Part shown: piece after piece, positions 1 to 42,239 of the stretch
Position numbering within the stretch: position 1 is the stretch's first letter
Layout of the letters: each line of letters opens with the position of its first letter
Assembly: GCA_031394435.1 (NCBI GenBank)
Contig: JANNTQ010000081.1
Coordinates: 186 to 64,185, forward strand
DNA length: 64,000 bases
Origin: Betaproteobacteria bacterium
GTDB lineage: Bacteria; Pseudomonadota; Gammaproteobacteria; Burkholderiales; SG8-39
Direction: 5' to 3'
The notes under the pieces: model-generated
The model's database searches: none
What the model was told of the DNA's origin: nothing
The model's input: the letters and a program-made list of their open reading frames with translations, nothing else
Program-made: the position numbers and the translations under genes

Positions 1-78
1 TCCAGGCTGCGTAGTTGTCGTAGAGTGGGGAGGGGTGAGCCGAGTGCGTCCGGGCGGCTCAACTCGGGGCCGTTAGGC
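1..78 (+). mobile_element. 3' arm of an integron attC-like site, truncated by the window edge; R' core GTTAGGC at 72-78
   Basis: GGGCGGCTCAACTCGGGGCC-GTTAGGC (52-78) ends in a GTTRRRY core. It shares 23 of 27 positions with the 3' arm of the complete attC-like site at 1004-1131. It also resembles the L'/R' arm of classical aadA-type attC (..CGGCTTAACTCAAGCGTTAGAT). Confidence 0.55.
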
Positions 79-1125
79 GTCGCTGATTAACGCGAGTCTT
101 GGGTTGAGGAGCTAAGGGAGGTGGGATCATGTCAAACACAATGCAGAGCCAGCTTGGTTCGGTGGTTGGTCTGTGGCGCTATCCTGTCAAGTCAATGATG
201 GGAGAAGAGCTAAACGCCGCCCACGTTACGGAACGCGGGCTGCTCGGGGATCGCGCGTACGCGCTTGTGGACCCGTCCAACGGGAAAGTTGCGAGCGCCA
301 AGAACCCGCGGAAATGGGCGAAGCTCTTCGATTGCCGGGCCGCCTTTCCCGGGTCCCCGCGCCTCGGCGAGAAGATACCTCCAGCCCGGATCACGCTTCC
401 GGACGGGACCATCGTCACCAGCGACCAGAGTGACCTCAAGCAAATCCTGTCGAAGGTGTTTGGTCGGGAGGTGACCCTTGAGACCATGGCGCCGCAGATG
501 CCCAGCCTCGAGGAGTACTGGCCGGACATGGAGGGCCTGGCCCACAGGGAAACGACCACCGATGAGACTATGCCGGCCGGCACATTCTTCGACCTGGCCG
601 TCATCCATGTATTGACGACTGCCACGATCGACCGGCTTCGGGAGCTCTATCCGCAAGGGCGCGTCGAGGTGAGGCGGTTTCGTCCTAACATAGTGGTAGA
701 GGTTGCCTCCGGCGAGAAAGATTTCGTTGAAAATGCTTGGGTTGGCCACACGCTGGCCATCGGGAACGAGCTTCGCCTGAATATCAGTGGCCCCTGCCCC
801 CGCTGCGTGATGACGACCCTGCCGCAGGGGGACCTCCCAAAGGACCCGGGGATCTTGCGTACGGCGGCCCAGCATAACCAAGTCAACGTCGGTGTTTATT
901 CCGCTGTGGTCCGGGGCGGTGCGATTCGCCGCGGTGATCCGGTCAGGCTTGAGTAAGTGCGGTCGCCAAAAGCGTAGCATTGCCTACCAATCAGAGCTAC
1001 GACGCCTAACAGCTCGCTGGAGCGACCCTCCTAGCTGGCGAAAATCCGAAGGTCCGTCGCCCGTCAGGTAGCACGAGAATTGATCACGCGTTGCCCCAGC
1101 CGGGGGGCGGCTCAGCTCGAGGTCG
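73..1125 (+). mobile_element. Putative integron-type gene cassette (~1053 bp) carrying the MOSC-domain ORF
   Basis: Bounded by G|TTAGGC (72-78) and G|TTAAGC (1125-1131). Holds a single ORF that starts 51 nt after the left core, with its own attC downstream. Codon third-position GC is lower than in neighbouring core genes. Confidence 0.55.
129..956 (+). CDS. MOSC domain-containing protein (MOSC_N beta-barrel + MOSC)
   Basis: 275-aa ORF. N-terminal WRYPVKSMMGE and C-terminal GPCPRCVMTT cysteine motif are typical of MOSC proteins. GGGAGG lies 7 nt upstream of the ATG. Confidence 0.85.
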   Translation: MSNTMQSQLGSVVGLWRYPVKSMMGEELNAAHVTERGLLGDRAYALVDPSNGKVASAKNPRKWAKLFDCRAAFPGSPRLGEKIPPARITLPDGTIVTSDQSDLKQILSKVFGREVTLETMAPQMPSLEEYWPDMEGLAHRETTTDETMPAGTFFDLAVIHVLTTATIDRLRELYPQGRVEVRRFRPNIVVEVASGEKDFVENAWVGHTLAIGNELRLNISGPCPRCVMTTLPQGDLPKDPGILRTAAQHNQVNVGVYSAVVRGGAIRRGDPVRLE

Positions 1126-1131
1126 TTAAGC
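1004..1131 (+). mobile_element. Complete attC-like recombination site (128 bp)
   Basis: Inverse core GCCTAAC (RYYYAAC, 1004-1010) and core GTTAAGC (GTTRRRY, 1125-1131). The arms GCCTAACAGCTCGCTGGAGCGAC / GGCGGCTCAGCTCGAGGTCGTTAAGC are imperfectly complementary, with an unpaired G (CTG[G]AGC vs GCTCAG). The 5' arm parallels aadA attC GTCTAACAATTCGTTCAAGCCGAC. Confidence 0.65.
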
Positions 1132-1173
1132 CGCAATGAAGATTAATTTGACGTAAATCCAGTGTCTGCTTTT

Positions 1174-1207
1174 GGCCGTAAGCAGCCGTTCTCGAGGTTT
1201 AGGGGGA
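1174..1207 (+). other. Degenerate copy of the attC 3' arm (possible decayed terminal site)
   Basis: AAGCAGCCGTTCTCGAGGT--TTAGGGG matches about 18 of 28 positions of the arm consensus, including an identical CTCGAGGT. The core lacks 2 nt and no inverse core is found upstream. Confidence 0.2.
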
Positions 1208-1208
1208 G

Positions 1209-1508
1209 CTACCTAGGCCAGGTACACGGTGTCGCCATGCACCATGTCAGCCGCAGCAGCCTTGCGGCGGTTCCGCCTCTTATCTGGTCGCGCTCGGTGT
1301 CGGTCAGTCCCTCGATTCGCGCAACAGTCGCAAGTGGATCCGTGAGTGCCATGTCAAAGCAGTAGTCGCTCCCCAGCAGCACCCGGTCGGCGCCAACCAG
1401 GCGCACGAGGTTGGCGTTGATGCGGTCGTCATGCCTGATGGTGTCGTAGCTGAAGCGCCGCAGGTATTCGCTCGGCAGCCGCTGAGGTCCGTGCGACAAC
1501 TCGTTCAA
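1209..1508 (-). pseudogene. Amidohydrolase-2 (ACMSD-like) gene remnant; only the 3' ~85 codons are present
   Basis: ..VLLGSDYCFDM..TDTERDQIRGGTAARLLRL resembles the C-terminal part of ~330-aa metal-dependent TIM-barrel amidohydrolases. There is no upstream coding continuation: the DUF547 gene ends 15 nt away. Confidence 0.55.
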
Positions 1509-1522
1509 CGGCGACTGATCGC

Positions 1523-2251
1523 CTAGTCGAACGCACCGTAGCGCAGCTTGATGCGGCCGATGTTGCGGTCGGCACGCTCGAACGAGGCGTCGTCCAGCCG
1601 GCGCAGGACAAATTCAAGCACCGCGCTCTCGCCGCCGAAGTCCTCCGCGTACCAGCGCAGCCAATTCGGCACAGTCACCACGCTGCCGTCGCGCTCCACC
1701 TGCGCCAGGCGCCGGATGTACAGCGCGGCGGCTTCCTCGAGCTGGGCGTCCAGCTTGCCGGCCTCGAAGACGCGAAACGCCGGCGACGAGCGCGAGGCGC
1801 GGAACAGCGCGAAGTGCAGGCGCTCGTCGAAGGCGATCGGCATGTAGGCGAGGCGCGGATCGTCGCGCCTCATGGGCGCGCGCAGCCTGCCGTGCGCCGG
1901 CATGTTGCCGCGCAACAGGCCATGGTAGATCTCGTCCAGCGAGAACGGCTGCCCGAGGATCGTGAGCCGCGGCCGCTCGAAGAACTCTTCCATGCCCCGC
2001 TCGCCGGGGTCGAGCTTCAGTTCCGGCGCGTCGCGCAGCAGGCCGGCGTTGTACACGTTGATCCAGAACGCCATTTGGGCCGCGATGCGGACCTGCTTGG
2101 GATCGAAGGTTTCGAGCCTGGCCAGGCAGACGGCGAGGTGGCCGCGTTCGCGCGAGGCAGCGAGGGCCGCGTAGTCGCACGCCAGTCCCTCGGCATCGAA
2201 GTGCACGGCCAGCGCCGCCAGTGCCTGCGGAAGCTCGCGTTCAGGGTCCAT
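1523..2251 (-). CDS. DUF547 domain-containing protein
   Basis: 242-aa ORF with the ..AFWINVYNAGLL.. signature of DUF547. Confidence 0.75.
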   Translation of the reverse strand: MDPERELPQALAALAVHFDAEGLACDYAALAASRERGHLAVCLARLETFDPKQVRIAAQMAFWINVYNAGLLRDAPELKLDPGERGMEEFFERPRLTILGQPFSLDEIYHGLLRGNMPAHGRLRAPMRRDDPRLAYMPIAFDERLHFALFRASRSSPAFRVFEAGKLDAQLEEAAALYIRRLAQVERDGSVVTVPNWLRWYAEDFGGESAVLEFVLRRLDDASFERADRNIGRIKLRYGAFD

Positions 2252-16859: not shown

Positions 16860-16936
16860 AGGCGCGTAGCTCAGCTGGTTAGAGCACTACCTTGACATGG
16901 TAGGGGTCGTTGGTTCGAGTCCAATCGCGCCTACCA
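16860..16936 (+). tRNA. tRNA-Val (anticodon GAC)
   Basis: Cloverleaf folded by hand: acceptor AGGCGCG/CGCGCCT, D arm GCTC/GAGC, anticodon arm CTACC-TTGACAT-GGTAG, T arm GTTGG-TTCGAGT-CCAAT, encoded CCA. Confidence 0.9.
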
Positions 16937-24294: not shown

Positions 24295-24371
24295 CGGGGC
24301 GTAGCGCAGCCTGGTAGCGTACCTGCATGGGGTGCAGGTGGTCGCGAGTTCGAATCTCGCCGCCCCGACCA
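24295..24371 (+). tRNA. tRNA-Pro (anticodon GGG)
   Basis: Acceptor CGGGGCG/CGCCCCG, anticodon arm CCTGC-ATGGGGT-GCAGG, T arm GCGAG-TTCGAAT-CTCGC, encoded CCA. Confidence 0.9.
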
Positions 24372-37135: not shown

Positions 37136-37719
37136 TGATGGCGCAAATCGAGCGCCGCAGCCTGCTGTCGCTCGAAGCCTACGCGCGCGAACGCCACGCG
37201 TTTCGCGCGCGCGTCATCGAGCACAAGAAGCGCCGCACGGTCCACCTCGGCGATCACGTCACGCTGATCTTCGAGGACGAGCTGACGGTCCGCTACCAGA
37301 TCCAGGAGATGCTGCGCATCGAGCGCATCTTCGAGGAGACCGGCATCGAGGACGAGCTCGAGGTCTACAACCCGCTGGTGCCCGACGGCGGCAACCTGAA
37401 GGCCACCATGATGATCGAGTACACGGACGTCGCTGAACGCCAGCGCAGCCTGGCACAGCTCAAGGGCATCGAGGACCGGGTGTGGCTGCAGGTGGCAGGC
37501 GGCGTACGCGTCTACGCCATCGCCGACGAGGACCTGGAGCGCGAAAACGACGAGAAGACGTCGGCGGTGCATTTCCTGCGCTTCGAGCTGGACCAGGAAA
37601 TGCGCAACACCCTGCGCTATGGCGTCGGGTTGGCGATGGGAATCGATCACCGCCAGTACCAGGCAAACGTCGAGGTGGCGCCGGAGATCCGCGCCGCACT
37701 CCTCGCCGATCTCGCCTGA
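37135..37719 (+). CDS. DUF3501 family protein
   Basis: 194 aa; the start overlaps the rubrerythrin stop (TGATG). Sequence ..[27 protein letters not shown].. is typical of DUF3501, which is commonly rubrerythrin-linked. Confidence 0.7.
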
Positions 37720-42162: not shown

Positions 42163-42239
42163 CGGGGTGTAGCTCAGCCTGGTAGAGTACTGCGTTCGGG
42201 ACGCAGGTGTCGCTGGTTCGAATCCAGTCACCCCGACCA
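42163..42239 (+). tRNA. tRNA-Pro (anticodon CGG)
   Basis: Acceptor CGGGGTG/CACCCCG, anticodon arm CTGCG-TTCGGGA-CGCAG, T arm GCTGG-TTCGAAT-CCAGT, encoded CCA. Confidence 0.9.

Follow-up and report, generated by a model that had tools for sequence, protein, structure and literature searches.

The stretch analyzed here, a window of 64,000 nucleotides (nt) from a Betaproteobacteria bacterium (contig JANNTQ010000081.1, positions 186 to 64,185 of the forward strand), opens with a gene for a MOSC-domain protein that lies between two recombination sites of the attC type, and it is this region (window positions 1-1131), examined as a candidate end of an integron cassette array, that forms the subject of the present analysis. 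The MOSC open reading frame (ORF; 129-956, plus strand) encodes a YcbX-like protein of 275 residues, which comprises a MOSC_N and a MOSC domain (Pfam PF03476, E 5e-11, and PF03473, E 2e-17, respectively) and is devoid of a ferredoxin domain, while a Shine-Dalgarno-like sequence, AAGGGAGG (114-121, plus strand), can be read 7 nt before its ATG. The ORF is contained in a complete gene cassette of 1053 nt (73-1125, plus strand), whose first bases are the TT of G↓TTAGGC and whose last base is the G of the following G↓TTAAGC, the arrows marking the crossover points. A scan of window positions 1-1600 returned no sigma-70-like promoters and no intrinsic terminators, and a -35/-10 promoter sought by eye in the conserved attC centres (GATACT, TAGAGT) showed no convincing spacing. 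The unit thus combines a single ORF without a promoter-like site, an attC of its own and G↓TT crossover points as its boundaries, which is what defines a gene cassette, and the preliminary description of this DNA, which had framed the MOSC ORF as a promoterless cassette of ~1.05 kb, is borne out.

The base composition of the MOSC gene sets it apart from the genes to its right, as had also been claimed: its GC content at third codon positions (GC3) is 0.746, versus 0.87-0.90 in the genes for DUF547, a flavodoxin-like protein, EamA and other neighbours, and the overall GC content is 0.62 in 1-1131 versus 0.675 beyond position 1522. E. coli YcbX and other MOSC proteins are known for the molybdenum cofactor-dependent detoxification of N-hydroxylated base analogues. 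The protein encoded in the window shares with E. coli YcbX the MOSC_N and MOSC domain pair and possesses a conserved cysteine motif (GPCPRC), yet it is distinct in its length of 275 residues, in the absence of the C-terminal 2Fe-2S ferredoxin domain and in the location of its gene on a mobile cassette.

The attC of the MOSC cassette, which is the last of the array, occupies positions 1004-1131 (plus strand), with R'' at 1004-1010, L'' at 1016-1023 (including an extra base, G1019), a bulged A at 1025, L' at 1110-1116 and R' at 1125-1131. Its R'' sequence is GCCTAAC (RYYYAAC) and its R' sequence GTTAAGC (GTTRRRY), and its length of 128 nt falls within the usual attC range of ~57-141 nt; both cores and the length are exactly where and what they had been said to be. 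R'' and R' pair at 6/7 positions on the top strand and at 7/7 on the bottom strand, one of them as a G.T wobble, and L'' and L' constitute an imperfect inverted repeat, in which GCT[G]GAGC-G[A]CCC pairs with GGG-C[G]GCTC-AGC. An unpaired G, noted previously in the arms, is real and corresponds to G1019 of the top strand (L'' GCT[G]GAGC); the bottom strand, which is the recombining one, therefore carries a C at this point. The extrahelical bases of the bottom strand are accordingly this C (opposite G1019) and a T (opposite A1025), and in the model the two bulges coincide in position with those of the aadA1 attC, which are G and T.

A relaxed pattern of the 3' arm was scanned in genome_contigs (one genome per species), which returned 32 loci, mostly in metagenome-assembled genomes (MAGs) of Chloroflexota and otherwise in Planctomycetaceae, Acidobacteriota, Armatimonadetes and Methylomirabilales; the only proteobacterial match, in a Pseudomonas genome, is an isolated one with no 5' arm and no match to the model described below. 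Leftward extension of these loci revealed a shared 5' arm, GCCTAACAACTCGCTGGAGCCGACC, and discrete size classes of ~100 and ~130 nt. The consensus arms of the family are GCCTAACAACTCGCTGGAGCCGACC ... GGGCGGCTCAGCTCGAGGCCGTTAGGC, and the lengths of its members range from 57 to ~180 nt. The covariance model R1 is based on 26 sites of other genomes and on canonical R- and L-box pairs, and includes no sequence of the window. Within the family 95% of the cells in the R1 helices are paired and 5 pairs show compensatory changes, while the model finds ~90 matches in the arm-pattern loci. As a positive control R1 was applied to a class 1 integron with the genes intI1, blaVIM-2, aac(6')-Il, aadA1 and qacEdelta1, where its only matches above 11.3 bits were exactly the three attC sites, those of aadA1 (46.6 bits), aac(6')-Il (33.6 bits) and blaVIM-2 (27.1 bits), all located immediately downstream of the respective gene.

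With filters off, R1 matched 1004-1131 on the plus strand at 66.1 bits (E 4e-17), compared to 7.6 bits on the minus strand, so that this home-built model confirms the identity of the site as an attC and as a member of the family. The next-best match in the window reaches 15 bits; a weak match of that score at 37363-37476 sits inside long ORFs and was dismissed as noise. The inner start of the site, CCCTCCTAGCTGGCGAAAA, is also present in sites of an Armatimonadetes MAG and an Acidobacteriota MAG. No Rfam family matches the attC region of the window, a result that is uninformative either way.

The preliminary description had likened both arms to those of classical aadA-type sites, and indeed R1 aligns the aadA1 attC arm for arm with this attC family. 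Shared with the aadA1 and aadA7 sites of class 1 integrons are the R'' of the form RYYYAAC, a 5-nt spacer, an L'' with one extra base, GCCG[A], the L', a spacer and the R' of the form GTTRRRY, as well as two single-base bulges at the same positions in the 3' half of the folded bottom strand. The window site differs from them in its length (128 versus 60 nt), in its 3' spacer (8 versus 6 nt), in the extrahelical C, rather than G, of its bottom-strand L-box and in a degraded inner stem (z-score of the fold relative to shuffled sequences +0.56 versus -4.9).

The left edge of the window cuts a second site of the family. Positions 1-78 (plus strand) represent the 3' part of the attC of the preceding cassette, which belongs to the ~130-nt class or a longer one and ends in the R' core GTTAGGC (72-78). 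The 64 kb contain exactly two copies of the 27-nt 3' arm GGGCGGCTCARCTCGRGGYCGTTARGC (52-78 and 1105-1131), whereas shuffled sequences predict 0; the second of the arms reported earlier hence ends at 78, as had been stated, and the MOSC start codon follows 51 nt later. The two arms are 85% identical, and the centres of their two sites differ. Sites in four of the compared loci (L010, L020, L032 and L034) match window positions 1-78 almost identically over their 3' two-thirds, and the cut site, when complemented with 46 nt from a contig of the Logan assemblies (L001), is matched by R1 at 29.9 bits (E 7e-7), its 5' arm still missing.

Near-identical copies of the MOSC cassette were found in other arrays. 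In blastn comparisons window 70-955 shows 96.6% identity to L125:9941-10827, which comes from a MAG labelled Gemmatimonadetes, and window 70-1028 shows 93.5% identity to L126:1710-2669, from a second MAG. In both cases the identity starts at around window position 70, i.e., 2-3 nt before the G↓TT crossover point (72/73) of GTTAGGC, and the upstream attC is different in all three of the window, L125 and L126. Identity that begins just before the core site, behind an upstream attC that differs per genome, is characteristic of the exchange of cassettes by an integrase. The MOSC gene represents a mobile cassette that has moved between genomes, in agreement with the status assigned to it earlier. 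Recurrence of the gene with the same flanks in unrelated genomes, which had been named as an observation that would speak for a fixed gene, is not what the L125 and L126 copies present, as each follows a different upstream attC.

Relatives of the MOSC protein are numerous (7972 at E<=1e-60) and bear labels from several phyla, including a 96% match in a MAG labelled Gemmatimonadetes and others labelled Armatimonadota, Deltaproteobacteria and Betaproteobacteria, while the best match in a metagenome scan with this protein is 85% identical. Flanking attC sites are also present around more distant homologues (82-85%) in L035, L038, L039 and other loci, several further homologues carry attC sites of other types, and some appear to be ordinary chromosomal genes. 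The attC sites downstream of homologous MOSC cassettes (82-97% identical) measure 57 nt (L035:3011-3067), 91 nt (L038:3603-3693), 93 nt (L126:2644-2736), 128 nt (window 1004-1131) and ~230 nt (L125:10858-11090). That homologous cassettes carry such different downstream sites suggests exchange or decay inside attC sites; between L126 and the window the 3' untranslated region and the 5' arm of the attC match, with divergence beyond. In locus L054 a MOSC homologue was observed as the first cassette after intI.

The attC family is associated with integron integrases. A full-length integrase (L020:3733-4704; TIGR02249, 462 bits against a cutoff of 265) is present in an Anaerolineales MAG, where an attI-like GTTAGGC, a first cassette and attC sites of the family come after it. 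Locus L024 possesses a frameshifted intI (251 bits) just upstream of its first attC, and fragments of intI were identified in L006, L038, L054 and L010, the last three being C-terminal fragments on the same strand as the cassettes (L038:176-340, L054:19-93 and L010:4942-5037). The gene is divergent in L020, L024 and L006 and co-directional with the cassettes in L038, L054 and L010; the attC family thus occurs with both integron layouts. The integrase or its fragment is located on the 5' side of the attC top strand in each of the six loci, which substantiates the orientation rule applied in the preliminary description (6/6), and any integrase belonging to the array of the window is for this reason expected to the left.

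Window positions 1-1131 are therefore read, with a high degree of confidence, as the distal, integrase-far end of an integron-type cassette array in the chromosome of what is probably a betaproteobacterium (a Burkholderiales-like MAG). The proposal that the DNA begins within the final cassette of an integron array is supported by the position of the MOSC cassette between two attC sites and by the lack of any further attC or intI in the 62.9 kb to the right of the array. The array would run from the attC of the previous cassette, cut by the window start, through the complete MOSC cassette (73-1125) to the 128-nt attC. From established integron biology, an IntI tyrosine recombinase, which we infer to be encoded left of the window, would recognise the folded bottom strand of the attC through its R and L boxes with their extrahelical bases, and the cassette would be excised by recombination of attC with attC at G↓TT and then be re-inserted at attI. 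Transcription would proceed from a promoter far upstream, and low expression is for that reason to be expected of a cassette in last position.

Several observations weigh against this reading. The 64-kb window contains no IntI homologue, and no attI is visible. Since the 3' arm had served to collect the family, the independent tests are limited to the 5' arm, the inner part and the structure. The R1 score of 66 bits compares with 100-118 bits for typical family members, and relative to the consensus the site lacks 1 nt of L'' and has a C.A mispair in its R box; in total it shows five departures from the consensus arms. The L-box extrahelical base of the bottom strand is C instead of the usual G, which is atypical. 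Finally, the whole 128-nt bottom strand folds no better than shuffled sequences (z +0.56), while two family relatives reach -3.0 and -5.6 and the aadA1 attC -4.9. As for the fold check proposed earlier, the extrahelical C and T are found, and the canonical bottom-strand fold is reachable (-19.2 kcal/mol, compared to a minimum free energy of -21.0).

The arms of 1004-1131 are intact and its inner stem is degraded, and the site, with its low R1 score, L'' deletion, R-box mismatch and z-score of +0.56, is read as an eroded terminal attC. This copy of the cassette may recombine poorly. We infer that the copy would still be mobilisable; with its terminal attC being eroded, it may nonetheless be a nearly frozen terminal cassette.

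The poor fold and the lack of an Rfam match in the region could also speak for palindromes of another kind, such as repetitive extragenic palindromic or bacterial interspersed mosaic elements (REP/BIME-like), a miniature inverted-repeat transposable element or a terminator, with MOSC as an ordinary fixed gene. Against this stand the presence of the family in arrays beside integron integrases, the recovery by R1 of experimentally established attC sites, the change of neighbours of the MOSC gene with identity starting 2-3 nt before the G↓TT crossover, and the many MOSC homologues that carry other attC types. The integrase beside the family in L020, the MOSC identity break and the class 1 attC control together refute such a non-integron repeat, which is left with a negligible probability.

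The right-hand end of the array is marked by a non-coding spacer of 77 nt (1132-1208), which extends, as read from the sequence, from the last attC to the stop codon of an amidohydrolase gene and shows no similarity to any compared locus except the identical Logan contigs. The amidohydrolase ORF itself (1209-1508, minus strand) is a 5'-truncated remnant of an ACMSD-like Amidohydro_2 gene, corresponding to profile positions 203-289 of 289 of Pfam PF04909, i.e., to about the last third, and its homology to longer relatives covers window 1248-1502 only. Its closest named relatives are found in MAGs of Burkholderiales, Casimicrobiaceae and Betaproteobacteria (69-90% amino acid identity), in which it is an ordinary gene with no attC beside it. 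The GC3 of the remnant is 0.78, below the 0.84-0.96 of its relatives, and this, together with the truncation, suggests that the remnant is a pseudogene in decay and that the end of the array was once rearranged. Short amidohydrolase ORFs (81-122 residues) on many contigs were considered as a possible mobile or cassette-borne family, and this was rejected, as they proved to be frameshifted or contig-cut copies of the host gene, none of them beside an attC.

The first intact gene after the array encodes a DUF547 protein (1523-2251, minus strand; Pfam PF04784, E 3e-26; GC3 0.90), and from this gene onward (1523) the GC3 of the neighbouring genes is ~0.9. Its homologues are 75-88% identical, those with names being from Burkholderiales MAGs; the loci of DUF547 relatives (L115-L119) are not syntenic with the window, and no 'empty site' is definable from them. 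Position 1131 is the end of the array, which there borders on host DNA that has been rearranged. The earlier statement that it ends here against core chromosome is accordingly upheld as regards the end point, and requires amendment as regards the neighbour, because the 77-nt spacer and the 5'-truncated amidohydrolase remnant precede the first intact gene. As separate observations, the 84-kb contig carrying the 88%-identical DUF547 gene (L116, JBGQFF010000001.1) ends 59 nt after the DUF547 stop codon, on the side that is occupied by the array in the window, and the 64 kb contain three tRNA genes (16860-16933, 24295-24368 and 42163-42236), with no other Rfam match that reaches the gathering score.

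The junction between array and host DNA is supported by two independent Logan assemblies (L001, SRR20217207, and L002, SRR20217197), which reproduce window 1-1176 or 1-1466 exactly and include the junction of attC and amidohydrolase. The two contigs share their first base, which is located 46 nt to the left of the window and within the upstream attC, immediately past the point expected for the 5' arm; such a shared start fits a break of the assembly graph at a multi-copy arm, and hints at more cassettes. The source contig, too, was probably broken in or near a repeat array, which is of relevance to MAG quality and binning.

A chimera of assembly or binning, in which the left 1.1-1.5 kb would derive from a foreign array (for example, of Chloroflexota) misjoined to a betaproteobacterial contig, could account for the composition shift near 1500 and for the occurrence of the exact arm pattern in Chloroflexota, Planctomycetota, Acidobacteriota, Armatimonadota and Methylomirabilota, with the isolated Pseudomonas arm as sole proteobacterial match; moreover, no independent contig crosses 1467-1522. 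However, the two Logan assemblies join the attC to the amidohydrolase remnant, the closest relatives of which are from Burkholderiales-type MAGs, so that both sides of the uncovered segment 1467-1522 are betaproteobacterial, and close copies of the MOSC cassette are also labelled Betaproteobacteria and Deltaproteobacteria. A chimera is consequently considered very unlikely.

The array may be part of a complete integron or an integrase-less relic, namely a cluster of attC sites lacking an integrase (CALIN), a type of element that is common (Cury et al. 2016, PMC4889954). Such a short cluster, of two or a few cassettes, would be what remained after intI was lost, after a rearrangement or after part of an array was transferred, and would now be immobile unless an integrase acts in trans. 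By the criterion of at least two attC within 4 kb and no intI nearby, the window shows two attC sites 1053 nt apart and no intI to the right; two visible sites also compare with the ~20 or more cassettes with homogeneous attC of a sedentary chromosomal integron. The source NCBI contig has a length of 68,444 nt, leaving at most 4.4 kb outside the window. The 96.6%-identical copy in L125 is itself part of a small cluster with the core genes for methylmalonyl-CoA mutase and fructose-bisphosphatase directly upstream, an insertion sequence transposase (rve; L125:11581-12513) downstream, no integrase within 10 kb on either side and no intI in 20.8 kb, and L126 contains no intI in 10.6 kb. The eroded terminal attC and the truncated neighbouring host gene, which points to rearrangement, are likewise in line with a relic. 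On the other hand, the family adjoins an integrase or integrase fragment in six related loci, and the break of both Logan contigs at the same base inside the upstream attC, as a multi-copy arm would cause it, hints at further cassettes. Taken on its own, the relic is given a chance slightly short of even, and on account of the at most 4.4 kb outside the window and of the integrase-less cluster of L125 it is rated as likely as a complete integron.

In comparison with chromosomal integron arrays and CALINs as IntegronFinder defines them (PMC4889954), the region agrees in its two same-strand attC sites ~1 kb apart, in its promoterless, co-oriented ORF with its own attC, in its chromosomal location and non-resistance cargo, in a composition unlike that of the host and in a cassette that is common to arrays elsewhere; it differs in that the window shows the last cassette only and in that the array abuts a truncated host gene. 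When set beside the Chloroflexota arrays, e.g., those of CAVPYC010000001.1 and of the Anaerolineales contig JBBDZX010000007.1 with its full-length IntI, it shares the consensus arms, with window 1-78 in the ~130-nt class, whereas the host of the window appears betaproteobacterial and the terminal site shows its departures from the consensus arms.

The analysis also produced a number of observations on the attC family as such. In a Chloroflexia MAG an array of at least 55 kb extends to the contig end (CAVPYC010000001.1, 688001-743900; L030, L007, L005, L029, L004, L008 and L018), comprising dozens of near-identical ~100-nt attC sites with an arm every 0.6-1.3 kb, and a second contig of the same MAG (CAVPYC010000002.1; L024 and L016) harbours the intI, which is frameshifted, together with the first cassettes. 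One cassette is present in the former array in seven near-identical copies (L005, L007, L008, L018 and L029), with sites at positions 1630, 7215, 641, 3088, 488, 5444 and 2055 (reverse complement) that possess the usual 3' arm but are without the usual 5' arm (GCCTAACAACTCGCTGGAGC). The centres of attC sites are normally regarded as variable. In this family, by contrast, they are conserved in sequence across phyla, though mostly unpaired in the predicted bottom-strand fold, the centre of the ~100-nt class being GATACTAG and that of the ~130-nt class CGAAAATGG..ACT...GTAGAGTGGGGAGGGGTGAGCCGAG.

The sites of the family seem to be built from invariant arms and a few discrete centre modules, and centres appear to have been swapped between otherwise identical cassettes, the same MOSC cassette being found with at least four different centres. 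Members of the family carry the labels Chloroflexota, Gemmatimonadota, Armatimonadota, Acidobacteriota, Planctomycetota and Methylomirabilota and, in the window, Burkholderiales, and the family may mark one cross-phylum cassette pool instead of a lineage-specific repeat. If so, the Burkholderiales copy would be a cross-phylum import, and the centres would have a function of their own, for example in binding of the integrase or of a host factor or as an outward-facing expression signal. The joint reading of these points, i.e., a soil-wide, cross-phylum cassette pool with modular, swapped attC centres of own function and an imported Burkholderiales copy, is considered unlikely.

The element described here is an ordinary instance of a well-known kind, the end of an integron-type array, and leaves the knowledge of integrons unchanged. 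For annotation, it means that the MOSC gene is mobile accessory DNA rather than part of the core genome, and site 1004-1131 is a terminal attC in which natural erosion can be seen clearly. Of the side results, the most interesting are that the attC family and the MOSC cassette are spread across phyla and that the centres are conserved and apparently exchangeable. The MOSC cassette itself adds one more non-resistance cassette to those that circulate between MAGs in nearly unchanged form (94-97% DNA identity), and the labels of at least two of these MAGs are from distant phyla.

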